This document shows positions 727-18,246 of a stretch of DNA of 64,000 nucleotides, in pieces. Numbering within the stretch: position 1 is the first letter of the stretch; every line of letters begins with the position of its first letter. The notes beneath the pieces were generated by a model. It saw only the letters and a program-made list of their open reading frames with translations. It ran no database searches and had not been told where the DNA came from. This stretch comes from Treponemataceae bacterium (GTDB taxonomy: Bacteria; Spirochaetota; Spirochaetia; Treponematales; Rectinemataceae), in NCBI GenBank assembly GCA_963677895.2, contig CAXXGJ010000038.1:606826-670825 (forward strand). Direction: 5' to 3'. The position numbers and the translations under genes were made by a program.

Positions 727-1872
727 ATGAAAAAGCTCTCTCGAAAGGTTTTCGTAGGCTTGATTCTGCTCATCCTCATAAACGGCAACGTTTGGGGACA
801 GGGAAAAATCGACCCATCGAAGCCGATTAAAATTGCTCTCAGCGCCCCGTTCACAGGGCTGGGGTCGATCCTGGGCGACTACATCAAGCAGGGCGCTTTG
901 CTCGCCATAGACGAGATCAACGCGGCCGGCGGAGTCGCTGGCGCGAAGTTCGACCTCGTGGTCTATGACGACCAGGCGAACGCGAGCACGGCGGCTACGG
1001 TCGTTCGCAGGGCGCTCTTCGACGACAGAGCAGTGGCAATATTCGGCCCGAACATGAGCGCGGCGGTCATCGGCGTACATACCCTCGCCCAGCAGGCCAA
1101 GAAACCCATGCTCGTGGGAGCCACCTCCCCTTCCTTCCGCTTCGACAAGGTAAAGAACGACTATCTATTCAGACTTCGCGCCGATGACGGCATCAAAGTC
1201 GCCCAGCAAGTCAAGTACATAGCGGAAGTGCTCAAGGCGAAAAGACCGGGCGTCATCGTCGGATCCACGGACTATTGCACTTCGGCGCTCGATGTCGCCA
1301 AAGAAGCCTTCGCGAAATACGGCATCAAGATCGTCGATATCGAGAACATGAAAGAAGGCGACAAAGACGTCACCGCGCAGATCACCAAGCTCAAGAACGC
1401 GGGCATCGACTGTCTCGTCGGACTTACCCATGAGCCGGAAGCGGCCGTCGTGATGAAGCAGTATCGCCAGATGAAGCTCACCGCGCCTGTCGTCGGCTTC
1501 TCGGCTTGGGGCGTTCCCGCCTTCACGGACCTGGCCGGCGACGCGGCCGTGGGCGTAATCTCGGTACAAGGATTCAATCCCGCTGATACCGATCCGCCCG
1601 TGAAAGCCTTCGTGGATGCCTACAAGGCCAAGTGGGGCAGAGAGCCCAGCGATCCCGCCCAGTGCTATTATGATGGCGTTTACCTGCTGAAAAAGGCGAT
1701 CGAGACGGCCGGATCCACCGATTCCGTGAAGATTACCGAAGCCTTGGCGACCATCGAATACACTGGCGTACAGGGGAGAATGAAGATGGACGCGCTGCAC
1801 AATTACACCGACATCTGCTACATCTCGCAGTTCGACGGCAAGATATGGAAGATAATCACGAAGATTCAATAG
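727..1872 (+). CDS. ABC transporter substrate-binding protein, branched-chain amino acid (LivJ/K, Peripla_BP_6) family
   Basis: Signal peptide; IKIALSAPFTG, GALLAIDEINAAGGV, YDGVYLL, GVQG motifs; RBS AGGAGG. Confidence 0.9.
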   Translation: MKKLSRKVFVGLILLILINGNVWGQGKIDPSKPIKIALSAPFTGLGSILGDYIKQGALLAIDEINAAGGVAGAKFDLVVYDDQANASTAATVVRRALFDDRAVAIFGPNMSAAVIGVHTLAQQAKKPMLVGATSPSFRFDKVKNDYLFRLRADDGIKVAQQVKYIAEVLKAKRPGVIVGSTDYCTSALDVAKEAFAKYGIKIVDIENMKEGDKDVTAQITKLKNAGIDCLVGLTHEPEAAVVMKQYRQMKLTAPVVGFSAWGVPAFTDLAGDAAVGVISVQGFNPADTDPPVKAFVDAYKAKWGREPSDPAQCYYDGVYLLKKAIETAGSTDSVKITEALATIEYTGVQGRMKMDALHNYTDICYISQFDGKIWKIITKIQ

Positions 1873-1900
1873 TCAGACTTTCTTAGCGTTCGCTTCTTTA

Positions 1901-1937
1901 TAGCCAATTCGGCCGGCATTCCCGGCCGAATTGGCTA
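1901..1937. other. Perfect 16-bp stem-loop after the SBP gene (probable mRNA-stabilising hairpin)
   Basis: TAGCCAATTCGGCCGG-CATTC-CCGGCCGAATTGGCTA, no U-tract. Confidence 0.65.
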
Positions 1938-1964
1938 AATTCCAGGCTTTGAGAGGAAACATCC

Positions 1965-2858
1965 ATGCTTTTTAATGATCTTCTTCAAAATATTATTGGC
2001 GGTGTAACCGTGGGGTCCACCTATGGACTTATAGGCCTCGGCGTCGTTTTCCTCTGGCAAAGCATAAACAGGATAAATTTCGCGAACATAAGTTCGGCGA
2101 TGCTTGCCGCGTACTTGTTTTACACATTCTACACTCAGTTGCATTTCGGTTTTTTTCTATCCTTCATCTGTTCGATACTGATCATCGCGATTTATGGAAT
2201 GCTATTGCGCTATCTCGTCTATGAACCGATCACCCGGCACGGCGGAGACAAACTCGAATTCGTGGTCGCTACGCTGATGCTGTGCATTTTATGGTTGTCG
2301 GTTATAAACGCCACCTTCGGAGGTCTTCCGAAGCCATTCCCGCCCGTTTTCGGCGAATCCACGAGTTTTGTCCAGCTAGGCCCGATCAGTATCTCTTCGG
2401 TCTATTTCTGGATATTCCTGGTCGTATTGTTGTTGATTCTCGGTCTTTACTTTCTTCTCCGAAAAACGTTCATCGGGAAAATGCTCAGGGCGACCGCGCA
2501 GAACAAGGAAGCCGCGGCGCTTATGGGCGTCAACGTCAACCTGACAACATCCATCGCCTTCATGATGGCGACCACGATAGTCGGCATAGCGGGCATTTTG
2601 CTGGCCCCTATATATTTCGTATCCCTGGAACTCGGGGGCGGATCGATCGGCGTGAAAGGATTCGCTTCCGCGGTGATGGGAGGCTTGATCGATCCTTTCG
2701 GCGCGATTCTCGGCGGAATCACGATAGGTTTGATCGAGAACTTTTCCACGCTTTTCATTTCGTCGGCCTACAAGGATATCATCTCCTTCATGATTCTCGT
2801 TGTCGTGCTGCTCTGGAAGCCGCGAGGCATTTTTAACTGGACAACCAAAGGAGACTGA
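1965..2858 (+). CDS. livH: Branched-chain amino acid ABC permease
   Basis: G.TYGLIGLG, INFA, GK.LRATAQN..AA.LMG, VMGG motifs. Confidence 0.9.
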   Translation: MLFNDLLQNIIGGVTVGSTYGLIGLGVVFLWQSINRINFANISSAMLAAYLFYTFYTQLHFGFFLSFICSILIIAIYGMLLRYLVYEPITRHGGDKLEFVVATLMLCILWLSVINATFGGLPKPFPPVFGESTSFVQLGPISISSVYFWIFLVVLLLILGLYFLLRKTFIGKMLRATAQNKEAAALMGVNVNLTTSIAFMMATTIVGIAGILLAPIYFVSLELGGGSIGVKGFASAVMGGLIDPFGAILGGITIGLIENFSTLFISSAYKDIISFMILVVVLLWKPRGIFNWTTKGD

Positions 2859-2862
2859 AGCA

Positions 2863-3864
2863 ATGCGCCAAATAATAAAACGAATCGTCTATTTCCTGTT
2901 TTTCGCCTTCCTCCTCTGCATGCCTCTGCTGAGCAGGAACGATTATGATCTTTTCGTGACCAATCGAGCCTTGTTGAATGTGATCTTGGCTTCAGGCTTG
3001 GTATTTCTCACCGGCTTCGCGGGGCAGATTTCTCTTGGTCAGGCAGGCTTCTCCGCGATCGGAGCATATACCTCGGCGCTCGTGACCGTGAAACTGGGAC
3101 TGCCCATTCCCGTCGGCATCCTCGCGGGTGTCACGCTCAGCGCTCTCGCTGGACTTTTGGTGGCTGTCCCTTCATTCAAGCTGAAGGCTTTCTTCCTTTC
3201 GCTAATGACGATCGCATTCGGGCAGATCGTATGGCTTTTGCTCGTGAATCTGACGAAGCTGACCGGGGGGTCCCAGGGTCTGTTCAACATTCCTCTCATG
3301 AAAATAGGGAATAATCTGTTTTCGAACACGATGTACTATTATGTGTTTCTCGCTTTCGCCGTCCTGTCTCTCGTTTTGATTAACCGGATAAAATATTCGC
3401 ATATCGGACGAAAGATGTTCGCGGTGAACGACGACGAAATCGCCGCCGAAGCCTGCGGAATCAACTCCAAAAACACGAAGATTATGGCGTTCAGCATTTC
3501 CGCCGCCCTGGCGGGACTCTCGGGCAGTCTCTACGCCCATATGTTGGGATTTCTCACTCCGGAGCCTTTTGTCTTTTTCGAATCGGGCAACGCGGTCGCG
3601 ATGGCCGTCGTCGGCGGCCTGCGCCACATGAGCGGCGGCGTTGTTGGAGGTGTACTGCTCACATGGCTTCCCGAACTGCTCCGTCTGAACATAAGGGGTT
3701 TCGAGAATTATTACCTGATCGTCAACTCATCCATCGTTCTCCTCATCATCATCTTCCTTCCAAAGGGGCTCGGAGCAAGCCTTTTCAATGGTCTATCACG
3801 GCTTTGGGGCGAAAATCCGCGAGCTATGACCTTGCGTAACCCAAAAGGCAAGGAGAAAGCATAA
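2863..3864 (+). CDS. livM: Branched-chain amino acid ABC permease
   Basis: GFAGQISLGQAGFSAIGAY, TGGSQG, A.NDDE.AA motifs; start chosen at ATG 2863 after AAGGAG. Confidence 0.9.
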   Translation: MRQIIKRIVYFLFFAFLLCMPLLSRNDYDLFVTNRALLNVILASGLVFLTGFAGQISLGQAGFSAIGAYTSALVTVKLGLPIPVGILAGVTLSALAGLLVAVPSFKLKAFFLSLMTIAFGQIVWLLLVNLTKLTGGSQGLFNIPLMKIGNNLFSNTMYYYVFLAFAVLSLVLINRIKYSHIGRKMFAVNDDEIAAEACGINSKNTKIMAFSISAALAGLSGSLYAHMLGFLTPEPFVFFESGNAVAMAVVGGLRHMSGGVVGGVLLTWLPELLRLNIRGFENYYLIVNSSIVLLIIIFLPKGLGASLFNGLSRLWGENPRAMTLRNPKGKEKA

Positions 3865-3866
3865 TC

Positions 3867-4631
3867 ATGTCGTATATTCTGGAAACGAAAGCGCTTACGA
3901 AAAAATTCGGCGGCATCGTCGCGAACAACGGGATCGACCTTTTAATAACGGAAGGAAAAACGACCGGTCTGATTGGCCCCAACGGTTCGGGCAAGACGAC
4001 CTTCATCAATCAGATTTCCGGCATTTTCCCTCCCACATCGGGAAGCATCAAATTCAAGGGAACGGAGATATCGCAGCAACCGGCGTGCAAAGTAGCCTCC
4101 ATGGGAATCGCCAGGACTTTTCAAAGAATCCAGCTTTTCGATCGGCTGAATGTTCTGGAGAATGTATTGGTTCCAAGGGGCAAATTCATCTCGTCATCGC
4201 TTTTTGACGTGGCGTTCAGGTCAAAAAAACTGCGCCGCGAAGAAGACCAGCAATACGAAAAGTCGATGGAACTTCTGCGATTGTTGGGCCTCGAAAGCGA
4301 CGCGATGACCTATCCGTCCAAGCTTCCATACGGTAAAAGGCGCGCGCTGGAAATTGCCCGGGCTCTCGCGCTCGAACCTTCCCTGCTACTGCTCGACGAA
4401 CCAGCGGCCGGAATGACGAAGGAAGAATTTGTTGAGGTATTGCGCATCATGGATATACTCAAGGAAAAGAAAATCACCATGCTGCTGGTCGAACACACCA
4501 TGGAATTCATCAGAAAAGCCGTCGATTGGGTATATGTGCTTAATTTCGGCGAAGTGATCGCCCAGGGACCATTCGAGGAGATTGAAAAGAACAGGGCGGT
4601 CATAACCGCCTATTTGGGAGACGAAGAATGA
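3867..4631 (+). CDS. livG: ABC ATP-binding protein
   Basis: GPNGSGKTT, GIARTFQ, LPYG, LLLDEPAAG, VEH. Confidence 0.92.
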   Translation: MSYILETKALTKKFGGIVANNGIDLLITEGKTTGLIGPNGSGKTTFINQISGIFPPTSGSIKFKGTEISQQPACKVASMGIARTFQRIQLFDRLNVLENVLVPRGKFISSSLFDVAFRSKKLRREEDQQYEKSMELLRLLGLESDAMTYPSKLPYGKRRALEIARALALEPSLLLLDEPAAGMTKEEFVEVLRIMDILKEKKITMLLVEHTMEFIRKAVDWVYVLNFGEVIAQGPFEEIEKNRAVITAYLGDEE

Positions 4632-5359
4632 ATGGCAATCACGAAGCTATGCTCGAAATCGAAAACCTGAAAGTGGCGTATAACGGTATAACCGCGCTTA
4701 GATCCATTTCCATGTATGTCAATAAAGGTGAGGTGGTATCGGTTCTGGGCCCCAATGGGGCCGGAAAAACGACGCTCCTGCGCACGATTTCGGGACTGGT
4801 GAAGCCGGAGAGCGGCTCCAGCATCAAGTTCTGCGGCGCGCAACTTGTGGGCAAACCGGCATACACTATCGTCAAGGAAGGCGTTGCGCATGTTCCGGAA
4901 GGTAGACAGGTGTTTCCGGCGATGTCGGTGAACGAGAACCTCGAAGTCGCGGCCACCAGAATTCCGGGCTCTTCGCGCAAGGCGAAAATCGATGAGGTTT
5001 ATCAGCTCTTTCCGGAACTGGTAACCCGAAAGAATCAGCAGGCCGGATCCTTGAGCGGCGGCGAACAGCAGATGCTCGCCATCGGAAGGGCGATCGTCTC
5101 CAAATGCGATCTCGTCTTGATCGACGAACCTTCCATGGGTTTGGCCCCCGTTATCGTCCAGAGAATTTTCAGGACTTTGAAGGAAATCGTGAAGAACACG
5201 AAACTCACGCTTCTGATCGTGGAGCAAAACGCCAAGCTGTCCCTGCCGTTGAGCGATCGCATCTATATTCTGTCGCAGGGATCGATCGTCATGGAAGGCC
5301 CGGTGTCGGAGATCCACTCCAACCAGATGATCCAGGACATGTATTTCGCGAAAGATTGA
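4628..5359 (+). CDS. livF: ABC ATP-binding protein
   Basis: GPNGAGKTT, VPEGRQVF, LSGGEQQMLAIGR, DEPSMGLAP, VEQN. Confidence 0.92.
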   Translation: MNGNHEAMLEIENLKVAYNGITALRSISMYVNKGEVVSVLGPNGAGKTTLLRTISGLVKPESGSSIKFCGAQLVGKPAYTIVKEGVAHVPEGRQVFPAMSVNENLEVAATRIPGSSRKAKIDEVYQLFPELVTRKNQQAGSLSGGEQQMLAIGRAIVSKCDLVLIDEPSMGLAPVIVQRIFRTLKEIVKNTKLTLLIVEQNAKLSLPLSDRIYILSQGSIVMEGPVSEIHSNQMIQDMYFAKD

Positions 5360-5436
5360 GACGAAGTCGTCTGGAGCAGGCAATATCGAATATTTTTGAC
5401 GGCAAATTTATATAGCAAAGCTAGGAGGAAACGGAA

Positions 5437-6705
5437 ATGACAAACGAGTTACATGAATTAAAAGGCATGCCCATGAAAGGCACGCCATATTTTGACGCAC
5501 AGCGCTGGGTCTCCCCCCAGAATTACCTCGAAGGAGCCTCGTACGCCAAGCTGCCGAAAAGGGTCAGCATCCACGACGTCACCCTTCGGGACGGCGAGCA
5601 GACCTGCGGGCTTGTGTGGAGGGAAGATGACCGCGTCAGGATCGGCGAAGCCCTCGACGAGCTCGGCGTCGACCGCATCGAGGTGGGCATGCCCATCATC
5701 TCCGACGAGAACCGCAGGGCGATCAAGCGCCTGAAACAGATGCATCTCAAAAGCGAGATCGTCGCGTTCTGCAGGGCTATGCCCAAGGATATCGAGGCGG
5801 CCCTCGAAGTGGGCGTCGACCGTATCATCGTCGAACATGCGGTCAATCCCTACCTGAACGCCTATGTCTATCACAGCACCATGGATCAGGTCGTCGAGAA
5901 AGTGACGAACTGCATCGAAATGGCCAGGAAGAACGGCACCAAGGTGAGTTTCATGGGTTGGGACGCGACGCGCTCTTCGATAGACTACGTGCTCGACACC
6001 TTCGGCAGGATCGCCGCGGCGGCCAACCCGGAAACCGTAGCCTTCGTCGACAGTTTCGGCGTGGGTACGCCTTCGGCCATACAGTTCGCCTTCGAGGAAC
6101 TGCGAAAGGTAATCCCCGAAAAAATTGGCCTCGAATTCCACGTCCACAACGAATTCGGTCTCGCCATGGGATCGGTGATAGCCGCCGTCATGGGAGGCGC
6201 GAGGACAATTCACTCTTCGATGAATGGACTCGGCGAGAGGACGGGAAACGTCGCTACGGAGCAAGTGGCCGCGGCGCTCAAAATCCTGCTCAACATCGAT
6301 TCCGGCGTCGACATATCCAAATTGTGGAACGTGTCGAAACTGGTGCAGGATATAGCGAAGCTGTCGCCCGCGTACAACAGTCCCGTCGTAGGCGAAAGAC
6401 TGTTCTGGGTCGAATCGGGCGTCGTCGTCGACGCTCTCGACAAGTTGAACGACGCCGGCATCAACGCGGCGATGACACCCTACATGCCCCAGCTGGTGGG
6501 CAGGCCAGGTCCGGAAATAAAATACGGGGCCTTCAGCGGAAACGCAAGCGTAAAGTATTACCTGCGGCAGAACGGCATCGAGGCGACGGAAGATCAGCTC
6601 GAGGAAATACTCGAGAGGATACATGGGGAAGGTCGCATCAGAAAGACGGTCCTCGAAGAATCCCTGATCGCGAAGATCGTCGGCGACGTGAAAGGAAAGG
6701 CATAA
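5437..6705 (+). CDS. DRE-TIM metallolyase, homocitrate/isopropylmalate/Re-citrate synthase-like (no LeuA regulatory domain)
   Basis: DVTLRDGEQ, HVHNEFG, GLGERTGN motifs; RBS AGGAGG. Confidence 0.8.
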   Translation: MTNELHELKGMPMKGTPYFDAQRWVSPQNYLEGASYAKLPKRVSIHDVTLRDGEQTCGLVWREDDRVRIGEALDELGVDRIEVGMPIISDENRRAIKRLKQMHLKSEIVAFCRAMPKDIEAALEVGVDRIIVEHAVNPYLNAYVYHSTMDQVVEKVTNCIEMARKNGTKVSFMGWDATRSSIDYVLDTFGRIAAAANPETVAFVDSFGVGTPSAIQFAFEELRKVIPEKIGLEFHVHNEFGLAMGSVIAAVMGGARTIHSSMNGLGERTGNVATEQVAAALKILLNIDSGVDISKLWNVSKLVQDIAKLSPAYNSPVVGERLFWVESGVVVDALDKLNDAGINAAMTPYMPQLVGRPGPEIKYGAFSGNASVKYYLRQNGIEATEDQLEEILERIHGEGRIRKTVLEESLIAKIVGDVKGKA

Positions 6706-6708
6706 AAC

Positions 6709-7761
6709 ATGTTGATTCTGGCGGTGAATCCCGGTTCCACATCGACGCGCACCGCTCTCTTCGAAGATGAGCGATGCGTCGACAGCGCCAAGATGGAACA
6801 TGCCGGCGATTTTCTGGATCTGCCGCTTTTCCCCGATCAGTATCGCGCTCGCAGGCAAAGCGTCCTCGATCATCTGGAGCGCATCGGCGTAGATCCCCGA
6901 CAGCTTGACGGTTTCGCCGCCCGAGGAGGGCGGCTTAAGCCCATACCGTCGGGCGTCTACCGGGTGAACGAAGAGATGGTCAGGCACGCGAAACGAGGAC
7001 TTCAAGGCCAGCATCCCGCGAACATCGCGGTGGTCATGGCTTGGGATTTCGAAAAGGAATTCGGCGTACCCGGCTACACGGTTGACCCCATCAGCGTCGA
7101 CGAATTGGACGAGACGGCGAGGATCACTGGCATAAAAGGCATTCGCCGGGCTTCGCTGTCGCATGCCCTTTCCATGAAATCGGTCGCGAAAAAAGCCGCC
7201 CGGGAGATCGGGATGGAATACGCCGATGCGGGGCTTATAGTGACCCATCTCGGCGGAGGAGGATCCATCAGCGCCCATCGACGAGGGAGAATGGTCGATC
7301 TCTACAACAGCGACCAGGAGGGCCCCTTCGCCGTGGAGCGGGCCGGCGGGCTTCCTACCCTCAAGCTGCTGGAATACATGGAGACGAAAGCGATTTCCAT
7401 ACCTGAAGCGGTAAAAGAGCTGGCGCACGAAGGCGGCATGGTCTCGCACTTTGGCGTGAGAGACATTCAGGATATACTGAAGCTTGCCGAAGAAGACGCG
7501 GGGGCCACGTCGGTCATCGACGCCTACGTCTACCAGATCGCGAAGGGAGTCTCCAGCTTCCTTCCTCTCTTTGGCGGCAGACCCGATGCCCTCGCCTTCA
7601 CGGGAGGCGTGGTCCATAGCGAAAAAATACGGGGGATGCTCGCCGACTCCCTCGGATTCGCCGGCCGGCTGCTCTGGTATCCAGGCGAATTCGAGATGGA
7701 GGCGCTCGCCGAAGGCGTCCGCGGCGTCTTAAGAGGCGGTCTTCTCCCCCTGGACTATTGA
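6709..7761 (+). CDS. buk: Butyrate/branched-chain carboxylate kinase
   Basis: ILAVNPGSTST, VDP.SVDE, HLGGG.SISAH, EGPF, TGG, PGE.EM.ALA. Confidence 0.88.
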   Translation: MLILAVNPGSTSTRTALFEDERCVDSAKMEHAGDFLDLPLFPDQYRARRQSVLDHLERIGVDPRQLDGFAARGGRLKPIPSGVYRVNEEMVRHAKRGLQGQHPANIAVVMAWDFEKEFGVPGYTVDPISVDELDETARITGIKGIRRASLSHALSMKSVAKKAAREIGMEYADAGLIVTHLGGGGSISAHRRGRMVDLYNSDQEGPFAVERAGGLPTLKLLEYMETKAISIPEAVKELAHEGGMVSHFGVRDIQDILKLAEEDAGATSVIDAYVYQIAKGVSSFLPLFGGRPDALAFTGGVVHSEKIRGMLADSLGFAGRLLWYPGEFEMEALAEGVRGVLRGGLLPLDY

Positions 7762-7838
7762 GGGCGCCGGGAAAAGCGTCCCGATCGGTTAAATATCGAC
7801 GGGGGCAGCCTATTTTGTTTGAAAGGAGATCGAGAGAT

Positions 7839-8708
7839 ATGGCGGAGCTATCGAAGACACTGGCTCGATGCATCCAGAAGGCGGAATCCCGCGCACAGGA
7901 TTTCAAGGTAGGCCTGATCTTTCCCGATGAGGGACTTGTGAGAACGGCGCTGCGGGCACGCGAAAACGGAGTAGCCGATTCCATAGCCTTCAGCCCCTCG
8001 ACTATAGAAGGAATCGAGACGGTCCTGGCGCGTAGCCCCGCGGAGGCCATCGAAAAAGCGCTGGAGTTCTGCCTCCGGGGAGACCTGGACAGTCTGGTGA
8101 AGGGTTTGGTCAACACCAACATCTTCCTCAAGGGCCTCGTAAAATCGGCCTTCCGTACCAGCTATATCACGCACTGTTCCATTCTCGACCTGCCCGGCTA
8201 CGAAAAGCCGATTGTCGTATCAGACGGTACCGTAACCCCCTATCCGGATCTGGCGCAGAAAGTCGAGATTGTGCTCAATGCCATCCGTTGTTCCAGGATC
8301 CTGGGCGAGACGACGCCCAAAGTGGCCATCCTCAGCGCCAACGAACTCGTGCTGCCGGGCATAACATCGGGAAGCGACGCGGCAGTTCTCTCGACCATGG
8401 CCAGAAGAGGTCAGATCGCCGGCGCGATCGTCGACGGGCCGATGGCCTTGGATTCGGCGCTCTCTCCCCTCGCCTGCGAAAAGAAAGGCCTTCGCTTTTC
8501 ATTCGTCCCCCCCGCCGATGTCCTGATCGCGCCGGACCTGGAGAGCGCGGCCATGTTGATCAAGGCGGCCGTCCACCTTGCCGGAGCCTCGGTGGGCGGG
8601 ATTCTTTGGGGAACGAAGTGTCCGATCGTCCTCACCTCGCGCGCGGATTCCGATGAAGCGAAATATCTTTCTCTCTGCGTTTGCAAACTGGCGGCGAAGG
8701 CGCAATGA
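7839..8708 (+). CDS. ptb: Phosphate butyryl/acyltransferase
   Basis: LVKG, PKVAILSA.E, VDGPMALD.A, PIVLTSRADS; start after GAAAGGAG. Confidence 0.85.
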   Translation: MAELSKTLARCIQKAESRAQDFKVGLIFPDEGLVRTALRARENGVADSIAFSPSTIEGIETVLARSPAEAIEKALEFCLRGDLDSLVKGLVNTNIFLKGLVKSAFRTSYITHCSILDLPGYEKPIVVSDGTVTPYPDLAQKVEIVLNAIRCSRILGETTPKVAILSANELVLPGITSGSDAAVLSTMARRGQIAGAIVDGPMALDSALSPLACEKKGLRFSFVPPADVLIAPDLESAAMLIKAAVHLAGASVGGILWGTKCPIVLTSRADSDEAKYLSLCVCKLAAKAQ

Positions 8709-9538
8709 AAAAATCCTACATGTGGATCGATCCTTCCCTCCCCCGAGACCATGCCATCACCGGCCTTGATCTGCCGCTCCCCGAAGCTTTGTCACGCATG
8801 AAAGGGCTCGGGTTTGATGGCGTCGAAGTCATGATTGGCGATCCGGACCTCTTCGATCGGGATGTTTTCGGGAAGGCTGTCCTGGCGCATGGCCTTGAAG
8901 TCAGCCAGCTGTGCACCGGCGAACTCTTCGGTTCCCTGAACCTCATGCTGAACGACCCTGACGGCTCGGCAAGGATGGCCGCGCTAAAGAAGGCCGAAAG
9001 CGTGATCAGGCTGGCCGGCAGCCTAGGCCGTAAGGTCGGGATCGGGCGCTTTCGCGGAAAAATATGGAATGGAGATGCAACGTCATCGCTCGAGGCGATG
9101 GCAGGATCCTTTTCCGCGCTCGACAGGCTCGCCGGCGAAGAGGGCGTGGAACTGCTGATCGAGCCCCTTAGGCCCGACATCTGCGACACGCTCAACACCG
9201 TATCGCAGGCATGCTCCTTCATGGACGCCGCCGGTCTTTCCAATTTCGGCTGGCTTCTGGACACCGATCACGTGGGGCTCGACCAGGAAGCCGGCATCGT
9301 GGAAAATATGCGCCGATTGGGTTTCGTGCACCTCGCGGACACCTTTCATGTCCCCATGGGCAGGGGAAAGATCGATTTCCCGCGATATTTCGAGCTGCTC
9401 GGACGGCTTGAATACGCTGGCTACTGCAGCGTCGAAGTCTTCGGGGACAAGAAAATGGGAGAATCCGTCTTTTTGGCCGAAATGGCCGAGAAACTTGAGG
9501 ATTATATAGGTCACAACAATCGGGAAGGTAAGGTATGA
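8705..9538 (+). CDS. Sugar phosphate isomerase/epimerase (AP_endonuc_2 TIM barrel; IolO/5-keto-L-gluconate epimerase-like)
   Basis: GFDGVE, IEP, LDT.H, HLAD, G.GKIDF, SVE metal-site motifs. Confidence 0.75.
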   Translation: MKKSYMWIDPSLPRDHAITGLDLPLPEALSRMKGLGFDGVEVMIGDPDLFDRDVFGKAVLAHGLEVSQLCTGELFGSLNLMLNDPDGSARMAALKKAESVIRLAGSLGRKVGIGRFRGKIWNGDATSSLEAMAGSFSALDRLAGEEGVELLIEPLRPDICDTLNTVSQACSFMDAAGLSNFGWLLDTDHVGLDQEAGIVENMRRLGFVHLADTFHVPMGRGKIDFPRYFELLGRLEYAGYCSVEVFGDKKMGESVFLAEMAEKLEDYIGHNNREGKV

Positions 9539-10236
9539 ATATTGAACCCATTGAAGCGCAAAGCCTCGAGAAAGTCGTCTATCTGAATATCAAAAACAGG
9601 ATCATCTCGCTTGAGATTCCGCCGGAAGAAACGCTCAATATCAACTCCCTCGCGGCTTCCCTTAATGTGAGCATCACGCCGGTGAGAGGCGCGCTGCAGC
9701 TGCTCGAAAGGGAAGACCTCATCCGGAGGATTCACAATAAGGGCTTCTTCGTCGCGCCCATGACGAAGCTGGATTCCGAATATGTCTACGAAATGCGCCT
9801 CTCTCTCGAACTGCTCGCGCTGGAGAGAGCGATAGTCAATATCGACAAAAAAATGCTGAACAACCTCATAAAAAAAATGGTGGAACTCCTCGAGCTCCAC
9901 GACAAGTCTCCCACGAGCCTTCCGTACGAACTCGATTATTCTCTCCACGACCTCATAATCTCCTCATGCGGAAACCCTTACCTGCAGCATACCTATGAAA
10001 GGCTGATGGCCAATATCCAGCGCTACCGCAATGTCATCAGGAAATTTTCGCCGCCCGACGATATGAATTGGGTACGATCCGAACTCGAGCAGCATATTCA
10101 GATCGGCGAGCTTATATTGAAAGGCGACCTGGGCAGCGCGAAGGAACTGCTCGCCCGCCACATCAAGCATTTGATCTCGATCGTGAGCGAAAAGCTGTCG
10201 AATATAGCCTTCCCCATACCCATAACAAAGGAGTGA
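9535..10236 (+). CDS. GntR family regulator (FCD domain)
   Basis: wHTH LAASLNVSITPVRGALQ.L, YE.R..LE, D..LH, N.YL, EH..I. Confidence 0.9.
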   Translation: MNIEPIEAQSLEKVVYLNIKNRIISLEIPPEETLNINSLAASLNVSITPVRGALQLLEREDLIRRIHNKGFFVAPMTKLDSEYVYEMRLSLELLALERAIVNIDKKMLNNLIKKMVELLELHDKSPTSLPYELDYSLHDLIISSCGNPYLQHTYERLMANIQRYRNVIRKFSPPDDMNWVRSELEQHIQIGELILKGDLGSAKELLARHIKHLISIVSEKLSNIAFPIPITKE

Positions 10237-10240
10237 AGCA

Positions 10241-10519
10241 ATGAAGCGAGGACTGATAATGAATCGGCTCGACAATGTCGCCACCGTGCTGGACGATGTC
10301 GAGAAGAATGAAATCGTCTCGTGTAAGGGCTTGACCAATATCGTCGAATTGAAGGCCAACGAAAAAATCCCGCGCGGCCACAAGATTTCGCTCTCCATGA
10401 TTCCCGAGGGAGAAGCCGTCGTGAAATATGGTTTTGAAATTGGGTATTCCCTCTGCGAAATAGCGAAAGGTTCATATGTTCACGTGCACAATGTGGGAAG
10501 CAAGAGAACGGAGGAATAA
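10241..10519 (+). CDS. UxaA family dehydratase, small SAF-domain subunit
   Basis: DNVAT, IP.GHKI, V.KYG, G..VH.HN. Confidence 0.85.
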   Translation: MKRGLIMNRLDNVATVLDDVEKNEIVSCKGLTNIVELKANEKIPRGHKISLSMIPEGEAVVKYGFEIGYSLCEIAKGSYVHVHNVGSKRTEE

Positions 10520-10522
10520 ACG

Positions 10523-11704
10523 ATGAAGACATTATTCGGCTATCGCCGTCCCGACGGAAAAGTCGGCTTCCGCAATGTGACGCTCGTAATGCCCGTCGTC
10601 GCCTGCGTGAATCATATCGCTTCCCTGATCGCGAAGGACATTCCCGGCGCCGTGGCCGTCCACCACGAGGTAGGCTGCGCGCAGATTGGCGCCGATCATA
10701 GGCAGGCGTTCAGGACACTGCTGAATACGGGGCTAAATCCCAACGTGGGGGCCATCCTCCTCGTGGGCTTGGGATGCGAGAGGATCGATCCCCAGGAATT
10801 GGCCGCCGATTTGGCGAAGTCGGGAAAACCAGTCGAATTCATCGTTACCCAAGAGCTGGGTGGTACCCTTTCGACCGTGAAGAGAGGAAAGGAAATCGTG
10901 TCGGCCATGGTCCGCGACCTCGCGGGCATGAAACGCGAGGAGGTCCAGCCCTCGAGCATCGTGCTCGGCGTCGAATGCGGAGGAAGCGATTTTTCGTCCA
11001 GCCTCTCATCCAATCCCGTGGTGGGTTACGTCGCGGACGAACTCTTCACCTTGGGCGGGCGAATCGTCCTATCCGAGACCACCGAGGTCATAGGCACCGA
11101 GAGCATCCTCACCAAGCGCTGCGCCAGCACTGAAATCGCGGCGAAGCTGGTGGACCGCATCAAGAAGATGGTCGAGTACAGCCGAGGCGAGGACAGGGAC
11201 GAGGTGGACGGCGTCGCCGTACCCAACAACATCTCCCCGGGAAACGTCAGGGGAGGCCTCACTACTATTGAAGAAAAATCGCTGGGCGCCATTTCCAAAG
11301 GCGGATACACCTGCCCTATCGTCGGCGTCGTCGAATACGCCGAGATGGTGGGCTCCACGCCGGGACTGTGGTTCATGGATTCACCCGGCTACGATCCGGA
11401 ATGCACGACGGGGCTCATGGCCTGCGGCTGCAATCTGGTGCTTTTCACCACCGGGCTTGGGACTCCCCTGGGAAATCCCGTCACGCCTATCATCAAGGTC
11501 ACCGGCAACAGGAAAACCGCGATGCAGATGAAAGACGATATCGACATAGACGTTTCCTCGATTCTCGAGGAAGGCGGCACCTTCGCGGAGGAGTCCGCGA
11601 AGATGATCGATTTTGTCGCGGTCATAGCGAATGGAACGCTGACAAAATCGGAAGCCTTCGGCTACGCCGACTTCGGCATCACCAGGATCGGCCCCCGGCT
11701 CTGA
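10523..11704 (+). CDS. UxaA/GarD/SuyB family dehydratase, large subunit
   Basis: GYRRPDG.VG.RN, GC, GLGCE, ECGGSD, SETTE, PGN..GGLTTIEEKSLG, FTTG.G. Confidence 0.88.
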   Translation: MKTLFGYRRPDGKVGFRNVTLVMPVVACVNHIASLIAKDIPGAVAVHHEVGCAQIGADHRQAFRTLLNTGLNPNVGAILLVGLGCERIDPQELAADLAKSGKPVEFIVTQELGGTLSTVKRGKEIVSAMVRDLAGMKREEVQPSSIVLGVECGGSDFSSSLSSNPVVGYVADELFTLGGRIVLSETTEVIGTESILTKRCASTEIAAKLVDRIKKMVEYSRGEDRDEVDGVAVPNNISPGNVRGGLTTIEEKSLGAISKGGYTCPIVGVVEYAEMVGSTPGLWFMDSPGYDPECTTGLMACGCNLVLFTTGLGTPLGNPVTPIIKVTGNRKTAMQMKDDIDIDVSSILEEGGTFAEESAKMIDFVAVIANGTLTKSEAFGYADFGITRIGPRL

Positions 11705-11771
11705 TCCGCGGCCATCGGGCGGCGACATTTCGGGCGACGGCGTCTCTGGCGCCCTCACAACGGAGGATACA

Positions 11772-12821
11772 TTGGAAGACATTGCGATCGATTTTGAAGA
11801 GCTCGTGAAGATTTCCGCCGCCGCTCTCCAGCGCGCCGGATTTCCGGCCGACAAGAGCGAGGAAGCGGCTCGCGTGCTGGTCGAGGCGGACTCAAGAGGG
11901 ATCCGCTCCCACGGCGTCGTCCGCCTGACCCGATATCTCAGCGAAGCGAAACAAGGGTTCATCCGCCCCGAGGCCGAGCCCGAGGTCGTCTTCGAGACGC
12001 CAGTCTCCCTCGTGGTGGACGGAAACAGGGGTTTGGGGCAGCACGTGTCGATCTTCGCCATGGAGCGCTGCATCGAGAAGGCCGAAGCAAGCTATATCTG
12101 CTTCGCTACCGTCAGGAATTCCAACCATTTCGGGATCGCGGGCTATTACTCGGAGCTGGCGCAGAAAAAAGGCATGATAGGAATCTCGATGACCAACACC
12201 TATCCGCTGGTCGTCCCCACCTTCGGAAGGGAAGCCATGCTCGGAACGAATCCGATCGCCGTCTGCATCCCCGGCACGAGGGTTCCTTTCCACATGGACA
12301 TGGCGACGAGCGTGGTCCCGAGAGGCAAGATCGAAGTGAAGCTCCGCGCAGGGCAGCCGATACCCGAGGGCTGGGCCGTCGACGAGAACGGCTCTCGGAC
12401 CACGGATGCCGAAGCTGTCATCCACAACTTCAACACGCACTCCTATGGCGGCATCCTGCCTTTAGGCGGGGAAGGCGAAGGATTCGGCGGCCATAAGGGA
12501 TTCGGCCTGGCCACCCTCGTCGACCTGCTTTCCGCGGGCTTGTCGCTAGGACAGATGAGCCGCGACACCTACACCGACCAGGGAGGCGGCGTCTGCCACT
12601 TCTTCGGCGCGATCCGCGTGGAAGCCTTCGGGGACGCTCAGGCTATCAGGGCCGAGGTGCAGGACATCATGGATAGGCTCTGCGCCAGCCCCAGATCCTC
12701 GGGCAAGGATAAGATTTACTTCCACGGGGAGAAGGAGATGGCGGCGAGGGCGAATTCGATGAAGGATGGCGTGCGGCTGCCGAAATCCCTCCTCGACGAC
12801 ATCAGCGCCCTCGCGGAATAG
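11772..12821 (+). CDS. Ldh2 family 2-hydroxyacid dehydrogenase (malate/L-lactate/sulfolactate/ureidoglycolate type)
   Basis: SHGV, NSNHFG, GTNPI, DMATS, GHKG; TTG start after GGAGGA. Confidence 0.88.
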   Translation: MEDIAIDFEELVKISAAALQRAGFPADKSEEAARVLVEADSRGIRSHGVVRLTRYLSEAKQGFIRPEAEPEVVFETPVSLVVDGNRGLGQHVSIFAMERCIEKAEASYICFATVRNSNHFGIAGYYSELAQKKGMIGISMTNTYPLVVPTFGREAMLGTNPIAVCIPGTRVPFHMDMATSVVPRGKIEVKLRAGQPIPEGWAVDENGSRTTDAEAVIHNFNTHSYGGILPLGGEGEGFGGHKGFGLATLVDLLSAGLSLGQMSRDTYTDQGGGVCHFFGAIRVEAFGDAQAIRAEVQDIMDRLCASPRSSGKDKIYFHGEKEMAARANSMKDGVRLPKSLLDDISALAE

Positions 12822-12868
12822 AATCCCCCGAAAGTCTAGATAATTTTGCCATCGAAGGAATCGCGAAG

Positions 12869-14164
12869 ATGAATGCTGCGAAAATTCTTCCCAGATCCAA
12901 TTTTTCTTCCATCGAGGTGAGGCTCGATTCCGCGAACTCGATCGTCCTCGACGGATCGGCCGCGAAATCGGCGCGCTTCGCGCAAAGCCTGCCCGGGCCG
13001 CTGCCAAGACAGGGCGCCGCGCTACGCGGGGCGATCAACGAAGCCCTATCTTCCCGTCACGGGCCGGCCCTCGAGGACATCGTCAACCCGCGAAAGCGCG
13101 TGATCTACGCCATCGACGACCACACCCGGGGAACCCCTACGGCTCCCATTCTGGAGAGACTTCAGGAGCGGCTGAACGCCATGGGCCTCTCGGACTCGCA
13201 GACGATGATCCTGGTCTCGGCCGGCACGCATAGGCCTATGAACGAACAGGAACTCCGCATGAAGGTCGGCGGGCTTTACGGCCGCGTGGAAATTATCCTG
13301 CATGACTGCATGAATTCCGGGGAACTGTACAAAGCCGGGATTATCGATGGCATTCCCGTTCTTCTCAACAAGAACCTAAGGGACGCGGGCACGGTGATCG
13401 GCATCGGCAGCCTCGTGGCCCACAAGTTCTCGGGCTGGTCAGGCGGCGCCAAGATCGTCTGTCCAGGGCTGACAGGGTACGAAACGATCTATCGCTGCCA
13501 CTACAAATCCATCATCGAAGAACATATCATCCCCGGACAGAAGGACAACTGGTTCCGGGGATTCATCGACAGGATCGGCGATCTCGCGGGGCTGAAATAC
13601 AGCGTCAACTGTATCCCCACGATCGGCGGTCTCGTCGGCGTCGTGGCGGGCGATCCCCATGCCGCCTTTGACAGAAGCGTCTCCATCGCCGAAGACTTCA
13701 TGGCCACCTCGTTCGAGAAAAAACATGACCTCGTGGTGGTCTCGGCCTACCCAGCGACCACGGACCTATGGCAGAGCGGCAAAGGCTTTTACAATGGGGA
13801 CCTGCTCGTCAAGGATGGCGGGACTCTCGTCCTCGTCACGCCGCTCGATGAAGGGCTGGGCGACCACCCGGAGTTCATCTCTCTTCTCGAGAAAAGCCCC
13901 GCGGAAATCCTGGCTGTCCTCGATTCCGGAAAGCTTGAAGATCCCTTGGCGGCCGTGGCATCCTATGCAATCCGCCGCATCAGCGAAAGGTGCAGGTTGA
14001 GAATCGTGACGAACAACCGCTCGATCGTCGGGCATGACCTGCTGGGCGCGCCAATTTCGGGAGACATCGACAGCGCGACTGCCGAGGCTTTTCGGGATGG
14101 GGCTCGGGACCTCGCCGTTGTCAATGACAGCTATATCCTCCCAAAAACGCTTGTCGAAGGCTGA
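12869..14164 (+). CDS. larA: LarA-family nickel-pincer 2-hydroxyacid racemase/epimerase
   Basis: DD.TR.TP, GTHR.M, H.FSGWSGGAK...PG motifs. Confidence 0.82.
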   Translation: MNAAKILPRSNFSSIEVRLDSANSIVLDGSAAKSARFAQSLPGPLPRQGAALRGAINEALSSRHGPALEDIVNPRKRVIYAIDDHTRGTPTAPILERLQERLNAMGLSDSQTMILVSAGTHRPMNEQELRMKVGGLYGRVEIILHDCMNSGELYKAGIIDGIPVLLNKNLRDAGTVIGIGSLVAHKFSGWSGGAKIVCPGLTGYETIYRCHYKSIIEEHIIPGQKDNWFRGFIDRIGDLAGLKYSVNCIPTIGGLVGVVAGDPHAAFDRSVSIAEDFMATSFEKKHDLVVVSAYPATTDLWQSGKGFYNGDLLVKDGGTLVLVTPLDEGLGDHPEFISLLEKSPAEILAVLDSGKLEDPLAAVASYAIRRISERCRLRIVTNNRSIVGHDLLGAPISGDIDSATAEAFRDGARDLAVVNDSYILPKTLVEG

Positions 14165-14197
14165 TCCGATGGAGCATTATCCAGTATACAGGAGCGC

Positions 14198-15397
14198 GTG
14201 AACATGAAACCGAGCTTGCCAGGAAAAATCGTCGACAGGATACACGAGATGACGCCGTCCATGATCCAGCTGCGCCATAGATTGCACGGCCTGCCGGAGC
14301 TGAAATTCGAAGAGCGCGGGACAATGGCCATCATAAGGGATTTCGCGGCCGGCTGCGGCGTCGAGCTGATGGAACCGCTCATCGGAACCGACACGGTAGC
14401 CCTCCTCCGAGGAGGACGGCCAGGCCCGACGGTGCTTCTGCGGGCCGATATCGACGCGCTTCCGATTCAGGATTGTTCGGGCATGCCCTGGAGCTCCGCC
14501 ACTCAAGGAAGATCCCACGCCTGCGGACACGACGGCCATATGGCCATGCTGCTCGGCGCCATGAAAATCGCGGGCGAATTCGCGGGTGACCTCGCGGGCA
14601 ATGTCCGCTTCGTTTTCCAGCCGGCTGAGGAGGAGATAGGCGGAGGCAAGGCGCTTATCGAAAAAGGACTGCTCGAGCTTGAGCCCAGGGCCAACGTCGC
14701 CTTCGCCTTCCATGGATGGAGTGGCCTCCCCGCGGGAAAGATAAGCTGCGCTCCCGGTCCGGCGATGGCGGCCGCGGATAGTTTTTCGATCACGATAAAG
14801 GGAAAAGGCGGACATGGGGGCATGCCTCACGAGGCGATAGATCCGGTGGTGGCCGCTGCCCAGTCCATAATCGCGCTGCAGACGATAGCGTCGCGCAACG
14901 TCGATCCGCTGAAGCCCGTCGTCATCTCCATCTGCTCGCTCCACGGGGGGAGCACGCGCAACGTAATTCCCGACGAAGTGGTTCTCGAGGGGACGATACG
15001 CTATTTCGACAAAGAACTTCGGGACTATCTCGGCGAGAAGATGCGGTCGGTCGTCTCGAACACTTGCGCCGCCCTGGGCTGCACGAACAGCTTCACCCTC
15101 ATCGAAGGCTATATTCCTACGATAAACGACAGGAAAAGCGCGGAAATCGCGCGCTCTATCATCATTTCAACCATGGGCGAAGCCGCGTGGTCCGAAGACT
15201 TCATACCCTCGATGGGAACCGAGGACTTCGCCTATTACCTGGACAGGATTCCCGGAGCCTTCATGAGGCTGGGATTGGGAAAGGACTGGCCCAGGCTTCA
15301 CAACCCCGCCTTCGATTTCAACGACGAGGCGCTGGAGGCAGGGATGACGGCGCTCCTAGCCCTCGCTTTCGGATACGACGAGGCCTCGAAGCAATAG
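14198..15397 (+). CDS. M20D amidohydrolase (N-acyl-amino acid/hippurate hydrolase-like)
   Basis: LRADIDALP, HACGHDGH, FQPAEE, GKGGH..PH, EDF, LHNP. Confidence 0.9.
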   Translation: MNMKPSLPGKIVDRIHEMTPSMIQLRHRLHGLPELKFEERGTMAIIRDFAAGCGVELMEPLIGTDTVALLRGGRPGPTVLLRADIDALPIQDCSGMPWSSATQGRSHACGHDGHMAMLLGAMKIAGEFAGDLAGNVRFVFQPAEEEIGGGKALIEKGLLELEPRANVAFAFHGWSGLPAGKISCAPGPAMAAADSFSITIKGKGGHGGMPHEAIDPVVAAAQSIIALQTIASRNVDPLKPVVISICSLHGGSTRNVIPDEVVLEGTIRYFDKELRDYLGEKMRSVVSNTCAALGCTNSFTLIEGYIPTINDRKSAEIARSIIISTMGEAAWSEDFIPSMGTEDFAYYLDRIPGAFMRLGLGKDWPRLHNPAFDFNDEALEAGMTALLALAFGYDEASKQ

Positions 15398-15436: not shown

Positions 15437-16189
15437 TCAGCGAACGGGATTCACAAGCCGGCCTATGCCCTCGATCTCGACGGCGACCTCGTCTCCCGCC
15501 CGCATAGGCCCCACGCCCGAAGGAGTGCCCGTCATGATGATGTCGCCAGGCTCAAGGGTCATTATCGCCGATAGATATTCAATAAGCTTCGGCACCGCGA
15601 AGATAAGGTTGGCGGTAGTGGACGACTGTTTCGCCTGGCCGTTGAGAAAGGTTTGGATCTTGAGCGAAGAAGGATCCAATTCCGTCTCGATCCAGGGGCC
15701 GAAAGGCAGAAAGCTGTCGAATGATTTGGACATGGTCCACTGCCCTTCCTTGGGCTGAAGATCGCGCGCGGTGACGTCGTTGCCGCAGGTGTAGCCGAGT
15801 ATATAGCCGGAGGATTCGGCGGCCGGCACGTTCTTCGCTTTCTTCCCGATCACGACGACGAATTCCCCTTCAAACTCCACCTGTCCGGACATGGCCGGCC
15901 GCTCGATGTAGTCGAGAGGAGCGATGACAGCCGTAGAAGGCTTGATGAAAAAGACGGGAGTCTTGGGAATGGCGAGCCCGAACTCCACCGCGTGGTCGCG
16001 GTAATTGAGACCGATGCAGAGGGCCTTGCGGGGCATGCAGGGCGAGAGAAGCTTCACGGCCGACAGGGGAACGGTTGCTCCGGTTGTCTCGAAGGCGCCG
16101 AAAGGCGTGCCGGCGGCTATTCGAATCATGGATCCTTCGAGGATGCCATAAGTTTCCTTGGCTTCATGGAGGAAACGGACGATTTTCAT
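15437..16189 (-). CDS. Fumarylacetoacetate hydrolase family protein
   Basis: CIGLNY.DH, F.KP, EGE, GYT.GNDVTARD, KSFD, TGTP.GVG. Confidence 0.9.
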   Translation of the reverse strand: MKIVRFLHEAKETYGILEGSMIRIAAGTPFGAFETTGATVPLSAVKLLSPCMPRKALCIGLNYRDHAVEFGLAIPKTPVFFIKPSTAVIAPLDYIERPAMSGQVEFEGEFVVVIGKKAKNVPAAESSGYILGYTCGNDVTARDLQPKEGQWTMSKSFDSFLPFGPWIETELDPSSLKIQTFLNGQAKQSSTTANLIFAVPKLIEYLSAIMTLEPGDIIMTGTPSGVGPMRAGDEVAVEIEGIGRLVNPVR

Positions 16190-16204
16190 GAAAGACTCCT
16201 TCCT

Positions 16205-17125: not shown

Positions 17126-17129
17126 CGAA

Positions 17130-18131: not shown

Positions 18132-18145
18132 ACTGTTGCTGCTTC

Positions 18146-18216
18146 ATGATACACAGAGAAGGCCTCTTTGGCAAAGCCTGCCGGCCATTGAAAATGCCCC
18201 GTCCCTGCGGTAGAGT
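18146..18216. promoter_or_regulatory. Divergent sigma70-type promoters (psuK; J-domain/polA)
   Basis: Minus: TTGCCA (18174-18169)-17-TATCAT (18151-18146). Plus: TTGAAA (18188-18193)-17-TAGAGT (18211-18216). Confidence 0.55.
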
Positions 18217-18246
18217 AGCGCAAGAGTCAGGGTCAAGGAGCTATGG

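Follow-up and report, generated by a model that had tools for sequence, protein, structure and literature searches.

We analysed a 64,000-nucleotide stretch from a Treponemataceae bacterium (Rectinemataceae, Spirochaetota; assembly GCA_963677895.2, contig CAXXGJ010000038.1, positions 606,826 to 670,825 of the forward strand), hereafter the window, in which positions 727-15397 hold an operon that may ferment an imported amide by way of a coenzyme A (CoA) ester. Fifteen open reading frames (ORFs) on the plus strand follow one another with gaps of -4 to 92 bp, most of them preceded by a plausible ribosome-binding site. Families were assigned by Pfam and NCBIfam profile searches, with bit scores given here against the curated cut-offs. 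These searches confirmed each gene family named in the initial annotation, which had been made from the sequence without database searches, together with its co-directional, closely spaced layout; its location and strand stand as well, while its count of 14 genes becomes 15 unless the SAF and GD_AH ORFs are merged into one split UxaA. The operon opens with a Liv-type importer, comprising a LivK-type substrate-binding protein (SBP) of 381 aa (727-1872, PF13458), the permeases LivH (1965-2858) and LivM (2863-3864; both PF02653) and the ATPases LivG (3867-4631) and LivF (4628-5359), the latter two assigned from profile matches. There follow a 422-aa DRE-TIM enzyme of the LeuA/homocitrate synthase fold that lacks the synthase triad and is proposed to be a non-hydrolysing acyl-CoA C-C lyase (5437-6705), a butyrate-kinase (Buk) paralogue carrying R75 (in an RGGR motif) and S151 and proposed to act on a carboxylated acid (6709-7761), a phosphotransacylase of the Ptb family (7839-8708; PF01515, PTA_PTB, below the Ptb cut-offs), and an IolO-like TIM-barrel epimerase or isomerase that is not IolO itself (8705-9538, AP_endonuc_2). 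The distal part encodes a GntR-FCD regulator (9535-10236; PF00392 and PF07729), the SAF subunit of a split UxaA-family hydro-lyase (10241-10519; a weak PF08666 match and a GarD N-terminus), the large subunit of this UxaA/GarD-family dehydratase (10523-11704; PF04295 and PF20629), an accessory Ldh2-family 2-hydroxyacid dehydrogenase (11772-12821, PF02615), a LarA homologue with a new specificity signature (12869-14164, Lar_N) and an M20D amidohydrolase (14198-15397, TIGR01891 above cut-off). Searches of the PDB with the operon proteins returned family names, not substrates, and no plasmid match was found at E 1e-50.

Upstream of the first gene lies a probable plus-strand promoter (639-667), inferred from TTGACA, a 17-nt spacer and a weak -10 element, TACTGT; three recurrences of the operon (loci L021-L023) share the TTGACA at this position. 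A consensus scan did not list this promoter because its -10 element matches in three of six positions, and the scan for promoters and terminators gave counts equal to those from shuffled sequence (7 against 7.4 and 15 against 13.7). Just downstream is a probable operator for the GntR/FCD regulator (678-709), made up of the palindrome ATGATGCATCAT (681-692) and a second one, ATGATGCATC (700-709). The 3.5-Mb genome holds a single copy of the 12-mer, and the motif precedes the SBP gene in 9/9 loci with an FCD-GntR regulator and in 0/9 without one, the SBP gene not being first in three of the latter.

The initial annotation had tied its view of a single unit to the co-occurrence of these genes elsewhere. 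They do co-occur, beyond what chance would give, so refutation on this ground failed: the gene set recurs, with its order changed between phyla, in 37 loci (22 genome loci anchored on the DRE-TIM gene, 12 metagenome loci of the same subfamily and 3 reached via Buk). The genome loci span four phyla, being found in Spirochaetota, Cryosericum (Cryosericota), Kosmotogales/Thermotogaceae and Bacillota, with the phylum of Kosmotogales placed as we take it to be. The closest named relative is a Rectinemataceae (Spirochaetota) genome whose DRE-TIM protein is 99% identical. Several loci come from the same or near-identical genomes, some reached by two routes, so that all counts overstate independence. 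In the 26 loci with at least 5 kb on each side (well-flanked; the other 11 lie near contig ends), Buk is found in 26, Ptb in 23, PduL in 3, UxaA in 25, LarA in 21, an M20 enzyme in 21 (M20D in 14, M20A in 7), the IolO-like protein in 19, IlvD in 5 and some 2-hydroxyacid dehydrogenase in 14; M20 sits further upstream in two additional loci.

Around this set, several functions are exchanged. The importer may be of Liv, TRAP, TctABC, NMT1-type ABC or sugar-type ABC type; the regulator FCD-GntR, another GntR or PucR; the amidohydrolase M20D or, in seven loci, ArgE/DapE-type M20A; and the dehydrogenase Ldh2, a D-2-hydroxyacid dehydrogenase or ETF with a GlcD-like protein. That transporter, regulator, amidohydrolase and dehydrogenase are each swapped for unrelated proteins argues for one modular pathway. 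Ptb, too, is replaced by the unrelated PduL (PF06130) in L031, L033 and L066, where PduL comes after UxaA, and because one or the other is present in 26/26 well-flanked loci, an acyl-phosphate/acyl-CoA step appears to be required. A further exchange concerns the IolO-like protein and IlvD (which in the Bacillota loci passes the ilvD cut-off): 19 well-flanked loci have the former and 5 the latter, none has both and 2 have neither. Three of the four IlvD genomes have no IolO-like match and the match in the fourth lies in an inositol-like operon; a second IolO match in G139 was considered as a breach of the exclusion and rejected, since it sits in an inositol-like operon. This exclusion suggests two solutions for the second stereoisomer of a 2,3-dihydroxy acid, although one or two swaps might be enough to account for it.

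The DRE-TIM enzyme is the most unusual member of the set. As the initial annotation had stated, it lacks the LeuA regulatory domain (HMGL-like and HCS_D2 match, LeuA_dimer does not). Its AlphaFold model (pLDDT 94.5) has the homocitrate synthase/MAMS fold, with a TIM barrel and subdomains I and II (TM 0.83 to 6KTQ), and it keeps R51, D52, E54, Q55, R113, S206, H235 and H237. Aligned to MAMS 6E1J, however, Glu227 is replaced by W175, His388 by V330, and Tyr399 is not kept. Across the window protein and its 120 best matches, W175 is present in 121/121, residue 330 is Val, Pro or Ala in 121/121 and His in 0/121, and the Tyr column is not conserved, whereas R51/D52 are kept in 119/121 (two gaps) and H235/H237 in 121/121, along with Q55, S/T206 and R113. 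In the wider family (81 aligned rows) Glu at 175 occurs in none and His at 330 in at most one, while the host genome's own LeuA and CimA retain both the Glu and the His. A new acidic residue, E133, is found in 119/121 close and 74/81 wider sequences at the end of the strand adjoining the lost Glu, and M173 in 118/121 close sequences. We assume that E133 lines the 2-oxoacid pocket, where it would correspond to Tyr169 of M. tuberculosis isopropylmalate synthase (IPMS). According to the excerpted text of PMC11532901, the MAMS Glu/His/Tyr triad is conserved in IPMS and His388 is the likely base; of the mutants described there, only E227Q, H388N, T257S and Y399F were active, activity being undetectable for E227A, H388A and Y399S. 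With the residues that MAMS requires replaced, the label of a citrate-synthase-type enzyme, or synthase, in the initial annotation is not supported, and judged by its residues the enzyme is not a standard Claisen synthase. Profile models lead in the same direction: all synthase models (leuA, nifV, cimA and AksA-type) score below cut-off, the best at 304/517 and 294/485 bits. The HMGL-family model NF004283 gives 69/246 bits, so that the enzyme is no member of that family, though it may work alike. By fold the synthases match it far more closely (E 1e-31) than does 4LRT, a DRE-TIM aldolase (E 6e-15), an ESM Atlas search returned HMGL-like clusters only, and databases label its homologues homocitrate or isopropylmalate synthase. 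Among the close homologues that databases name are proteins of Mesotoga sp. and Tissierella praeacuta.

Relatives of the enzyme extend beyond the cluster. Loci L057-L135 and L223-L238 place a triad-less LeuA-like family, often called homocitrate synthase, in many catabolic operons, with cyclase, PreA-like proteins, molybdenum enzymes, CoA-transferases, fumarase/tartrate dehydratase and aconitase X as partners. The commonest neighbour is a cyclase-type protein (23/85 gene loci), with creatininase, M24 and M20 elsewhere, so that hydrolysis of an amide ahead of the DRE-TIM step seems to be a general feature. Some relatives are followed directly by genes for a SucCD-type ligase, by a family I CoA-transferase gene (L090) or, in L110, by one for an ADP-forming ligase, and L227 carries two triad-less DRE-TIM genes 12 kb apart (5015-8286 and 16863-19301), one followed by SucCD-type genes and the other by a family III CoA-transferase. 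Such an arrangement supports a CoA ester as the substrate.

The second distinctive protein is the kinase. It passes the Buk model (TIGR02707, 313 against a cut-off of 289 bits) and has the motifs NPGSTST, HLGGG and ERAG, yet the usual hydrophobic acyl pocket (GGL..., IFHALNQK) is not kept: relative to Thermotoga Buk2, RGGL has become RGGR and IFHAL has become LSHAL (SLSHAL). R75 is present in 25/25 cluster loci and in 6/30 best Bacillota matches, five of these six lying in the same cluster, and it is absent from the housekeeping buk of the host (contig C18, with a normal ptb), which has GGV and IFH. The change from Phe to Ser at S151 is more widespread and not diagnostic. In an unrooted tree the cluster Buks separate from the non-cluster ones. 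From motif matches we take R75 to lie beside Val93 of acetate kinase and S151 to fall on its residue 181; these two positions, Val93 and Ala/Phe181, limit acyl size in acetate kinase (PMC3475010, in part). The operon Buk is a dedicated paralogue whose invariant Arg would lie next to the acyl pocket, where it would suit a second carboxylate. The butyrate kinase substrates given in the portion of PMC8085960 consulted are monocarboxylic acids only, and neither that portion nor the corresponding one of PMC3156405 holds anything on a Buk/DRE-TIM module.

Among the remaining enzymes, UxaA, with its SAF and GD_AH domains, keeps the iron-binding cysteines C28, C52, C85 and C152 in all aligned cluster members; as stated in the part of PMC6336799 consulted, four cysteines are found in all UxaA/GarD members except sulfolactate sulfo-lyase. 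For Ldh2, present in 8/26 well-flanked loci, the best PDB match is 1V9N, named malate dehydrogenase, and the best NCBIfam model is sulfolactate dehydrogenase (231/500 bits). The IolO-like protein has IolO as its best model (114/300 bits) and TM0416 as its best PDB match; it keeps E153, D186, H189, H209 and E244, while its EPLNR and SNRW signatures are altered and differ from those of TM0416 and of the IolO-type gene of the inositol-like operon. M20D (TIGR01891, 304 against 154 bits; best PDB match YxeP) has C109, H111, E144/E145, H172 and H368, which we take to be the Cys/His/Glu/His/His metal ligands. LarA carries D84, R87, H121, H185, K195, H211 and K305 as equivalents of D72, R75, H108, H174, K184, H200 and K298, the catalytic and nickel-pincer (NPN) cofactor residues listed in the consulted part of PMC7583248. 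Its K186/F187 and L360/A361 match none of the signatures (LAR, MAR, HGR, GntE, HHR) in the part of PMC11770544 consulted, and most cluster LarAs have Lys or Arg after the catalytic His. All LarA specificity models score below cut-off, malate-racemase models being best and hexonate and LarAH14/15/16 lowest; a second LarA in the Bacillota loci reaches 516/540 bits on the broad-range LarAH10 model. Lastly, the SBP pocket motifs GPNMS, GATS, LTHE and F[ST]AWG are kept in 20/20 aligned cluster SBPs, implying one ligand.

We postulate, tentatively and as something short of probable, that the cluster encodes a modular fermentative pathway that imports the N-acyl amide of a branched hydroxy-dicarboxylic acid and, once this acid is freed, cleaves it via its CoA ester. 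The acid would have a malate, citramalate or citrate type of skeleton with an extra hydroxyl. After import by the Liv system, M20 would free the acid, the Arg-pocket Buk would phosphorylate one carboxylate and Ptb (or PduL) would convert the acyl phosphate to the CoA ester. The triad-less DRE-TIM enzyme would then split this malyl-type ester without hydrolysis, giving an acyl-CoA and a small 3-hydroxy-2-oxoacid. The latter could be reduced by a 2-hydroxyacid dehydrogenase to a 2,3-dihydroxy acid, whose stereocentres would be corrected by the IolO-like protein (C3) and LarA (C2), or whose other isomer would be taken by IlvD, before UxaA dehydrates it to a 2-oxoacid; the acyl-CoA would return the ATP. 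This six-step chain is the simplest that uses every gene, each of its steps, its direction and its substrate being predicted from the genes. It draws on several observations. First, the presence of Buk and of Ptb or PduL in every well-flanked locus, against Buk in 1/85 gene loci of the wider family, makes a CoA-ester step look obligatory in the cluster. Second, loss of the triad with retention of the metal site, S206, R113 and subdomain II supports a lyase, and the ligase and CoA-transferase genes downstream of its relatives support the CoA ester. Third, the conservation of R75, the leaning of LarA towards malate racemases and the exclusion between IolO-like and IlvD proteins fit the proposed substrate. 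The initial annotation had likewise seen a single catabolic unit with an importer, an amide hydrolase, a stereochemical funnel, a dehydratase and an acyl-CoA/acyl-phosphate step, and this part of its inference stands, whereas its synthase label is not supported and its sulfolactate option is disfavoured. Neither the specialised Buk pocket nor the lack of larBCE had been noted in it.

Several points weigh against this proposal. Any acid-to-CoA module occurs in just 16/85 gene loci of the wider family (9/31 well-flanked), a count that includes several modules on the opposite strand and matches only partly inspected, and ten further sister loci have neither Buk nor Ptb; CoA-ester cleavage may thus not hold for the family as a whole. 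E133 could act as a relocated base. The pocket roles are putative, being drawn from alignments and residue numbering, not from coordinates. LarA is found in carriers that have no known supply of its cofactor (see below), and no natural amide of the proposed skeleton was identified. In addition, the G254 genome (L173, L189) has an RGGR-Buk and Ptb with E1alpha/E1beta/E2 of a 2-oxoacid dehydrogenase, M20, PucR and Liv on a contig that ends at buk, with a divergent S-Me-THD-like gene, a hydantoin racemase and a probable permease as additional neighbours. No DRE-TIM match was found in the G254 genome, and a kinase of this kind beside E1/E2 favours the ATP-forming direction; we regard this operon as another pathway with the same kinase type. 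Loci L224 and L228 join a triad-less DRE-TIM enzyme to LarA, UxaA, a D-2-hydroxyacid dehydrogenase, Liv and a pocket-altered acetate kinase, with no phosphotransacylase nearby. Their acetate-kinase paralogues (L224:15597-16784 and L228:4386-5579) carry FKVVHAK in place of what we take to be the usual HRVVHGG motif and would represent a second, convergent kinase type.

A doubtful but serious alternative is that UxaA supplies a free keto acid which the DRE-TIM enzyme then cleaves, with Ptb/Buk harvesting ATP from a polar acyl-CoA that comes from this cleavage or from a 2-oxoacid oxidoreductase. Pyruvate would be one product in either form of this cleavage; the other would be an aldehyde if a 2-keto-3-deoxy acid underwent a retro-aldol reaction, or a hydroxyacyl-CoA if a 2,4-diketo acid were split in a CoA-dependent way. 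Loss of the triad also fits this route, and UxaA, IlvD, IolO and LarA are the classic families of aldonate funnels. A CoA-activating gene is missing from most wider-family loci; SDR, Zn-ADH, FAH and molybdenum oxidoreductases are among the neighbours in that family, and the G254 operon does join an RGGR-Buk to E1/E2. However, the core loci hold no aldehyde dehydrogenase, C4 dehydrogenase or oxidoreductase, and the fold is, as noted above, much nearer to the synthases than to aldolase 4LRT.

It is less likely that the same enzymes run as a condensation, in which glyoxylate or another small 2-oxoacid and acetyl- or glycolyl-CoA would yield a CoA ester of the (R)-malyl or tartryl type, Ptb/Buk would release the acid with ATP, and LarA, Ldh2 and UxaA would pass the product to oxaloacetate. 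The bulky M173, if it has the pocket role we assign to it, points to a pocket for a small 2-oxoacid; among the neighbouring genes are GlcD-like, glyoxylate-reductase-like and fumarase/tartrate-dehydratase ones; and anaerobic glyoxylate fermentation via malyl-CoA is described for Syntrophobotulus and Moorella in the consulted parts of PMC8092247 and PMC6313629. ABC import, on the other hand, would probably be too costly for a C2 substrate, and the roles of M20 and the IolO-like protein are left unexplained. Taking cleavage of the CoA ester and this condensation together, we consider a non-hydrolysing lyase to be on balance probable.

Quite improbable, in our view, is a true synthase that does hydrolyse, its base having moved to E133/H134, and that receives an unusual acyl-CoA from Buk/Ptb, as in a methylcitrate-like cycle; the initial annotation had raised activation of an acid for the synthase as its own alternative. 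The high conservation of E133 beside the strand of the lost Glu and the database names speak for it; yet all three triad residues are lost, every synthase model falls below cut-off, and the core loci have no aconitase or LeuCD-type partner. Sulfolactate-type chemistry (SuyAB with a ComC-like enzyme), also suggested initially, may be set aside as very improbable, for although the split UxaA architecture and the top NCBIfam model of Ldh2 recall it, and the Arg of Buk could bind a sulfonate, the four UxaA/GarD cysteines absent from SuyAB (PMC6336799, in part) are kept, Ldh2 scores under half of its cut-off and is confined to a minority of loci, and none of the loci showed a gene for sulfite export or sulfite reduction.

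The proposed pathway leaves the cofactor of LarA to be accounted for. No larB, larC or larE was found in the host genome (G000, 92.8% complete), and each was found in 0/22 carrier genomes (of unstated completeness), 2/2 positive controls being recovered where run; a Lar_N match is present in 19/22 carriers, leaving three without any. With larBCE absent, the LarA step is conditional. Because the cluster occurs in these genomes, one might suppose that it takes over from larBCE in making or salvaging the nickel-pincer cofactor, but a family control largely refutes this idea, to which we give almost no credence: among 69 genomes of the family, 51 have a strong Lar_N match, 12 have LarC and 7 have both, so that 44/51 LarA-bearing genomes (some with several LarA) lack larC, 39 of these 44 lack the cluster as well, and the three carriers without a Lar_N match also speak against it. 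The larBCE gap is common in the family and is not tied to the cluster. The 44/51 pattern suggests that the nickel-pincer cofactor is taken up, that it is obtained by another route or that LarA works without it; the reverse case, larBCE without larA, appears in the part of PMC13524815 consulted.

The surroundings of the operon were also inspected. Just upstream and co-directional with it (L243:467-7776, with DctM ending at window position 450) lie two FadR-type regulators, a TRAP transporter and two tandem enolase-superfamily sugar-acid dehydratases, for which galactonate dehydratase is the best model, below cut-off; the TRAP genes are kept in closest relatives only. Downstream, PfkB kinase, pseudouridine-glycosidase-like (Indigoidine_A) and FAH-family genes on the minus strand (window 15437-18131) converge on the operon. 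We considered, and rejected, a part in the pathway for the TRAP/enolase operon upstream and for the FAH gene downstream, since both are kept only in the closest relatives. Further along, a perfect 15-bp tandem repeat of 5.3 copies (window 19652-19730) lengthens an interdomain linker within a gene that we take from its motifs to be PolA-like. Outside the window, a gene that its motifs presumably mark as xylose-isomerase-like (G000:C38:594548-595892, minus strand) appears as two overlapping frames, possibly through a frameshift or an assembly error.

No described pathway with this enzyme set was found in a literature search that covered few subscription journals, in agreement with the initial annotation, which knew of no named pathway. 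All parts come from known superfamilies, whereas no characterisation appears to exist of the pathway, of the triad-less subfamily or of the Arg-pocket Buk. With the LeuA-family synthases (IPMS, homocitrate synthase 6KTQ, MAMS 6E1J and CimA) the DRE-TIM enzyme shares the subdomain I/II fold (TM 0.82-0.83), the DRE motif, the HxH metal site and the 2-oxoacid-binding Thr/Ser; it differs in its replaced triad, the new E133, an N-terminal WVSP extension, the missing regulatory domain, its catabolic context and an identity of at most 32%. ATP-citrate lyase, malate thiokinase with malyl-CoA lyase, and CoA-transferase with (R)-citramalyl-CoA lyase all convert the CoA ester of a hydroxy-diacid to an acyl-CoA and a 2-oxoacid. 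The proposed module would share this logic, but Buk/Ptb or PduL would stand where those systems have an ATP-grasp ligase or CoA-transferase, and its putative lyase has a LeuA fold in place of a CitE, citrate-synthase or short HMGL fold. Its kinase has the phosphate-binding and catalytic motifs of the Ptb/Buk systems of butyrate and branched-chain acid fermentation (T. maritima Buk2, 1X9J), but Arg for Leu (R75) and Ser for Phe (S151) near the acyl pocket. The IolO-like, LarA and UxaA families are shared with the UxaA/GarD aldonate pathways and the Thermotoga inositol/hexuronate funnel, which contains IolO and a GntE-type LarA; the operon core differs from this funnel in having no IolM/IolN, sugar-acid kinase or KDPG aldolase. 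Glyoxylate fermentation via malyl-CoA in Syntrophobotulus and Moorella, likened here by its description and not by gene comparison, may share a non-hydrolysing Claisen step and an energy-rich malyl-type ester, to which the cluster adds an importer, an amidohydrolase, a dehydratase and epimerases.

We find it quite plausible, if a little short of probable, that a large branch of LeuA-fold proteins acts as a reversible acyl-CoA C-C lyase without thioester hydrolysis, and that here, joined to a dicarboxylate-adapted Buk and a phosphotransacylase, it forms a module that evolved separately yet is equivalent to ATP-citrate lyase or to malate thiokinase/malyl-CoA lyase, serving an amide substrate widespread in digesters and sediments, with the NPN of LarA coming from outside or being dispensable. 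If so, this would be a new reaction type in the DRE-TIM superfamily, and many 'homocitrate synthase' annotations in anaerobes would be wrong. With the Buk there would be a kinase of natural origin for acids that resemble malate or succinate; in the two papers found on malyl phosphate, the route is an engineered one. Were the condensation true instead, it would represent a new substrate-level phosphorylation. The pattern of LarA without larBCE raises a separate question, that of cofactor sharing. For the organisms themselves, CoA-ester cleavage by this cluster would mean a catabolic capacity conserved among amino-acid and sugar fermenters of four phyla.

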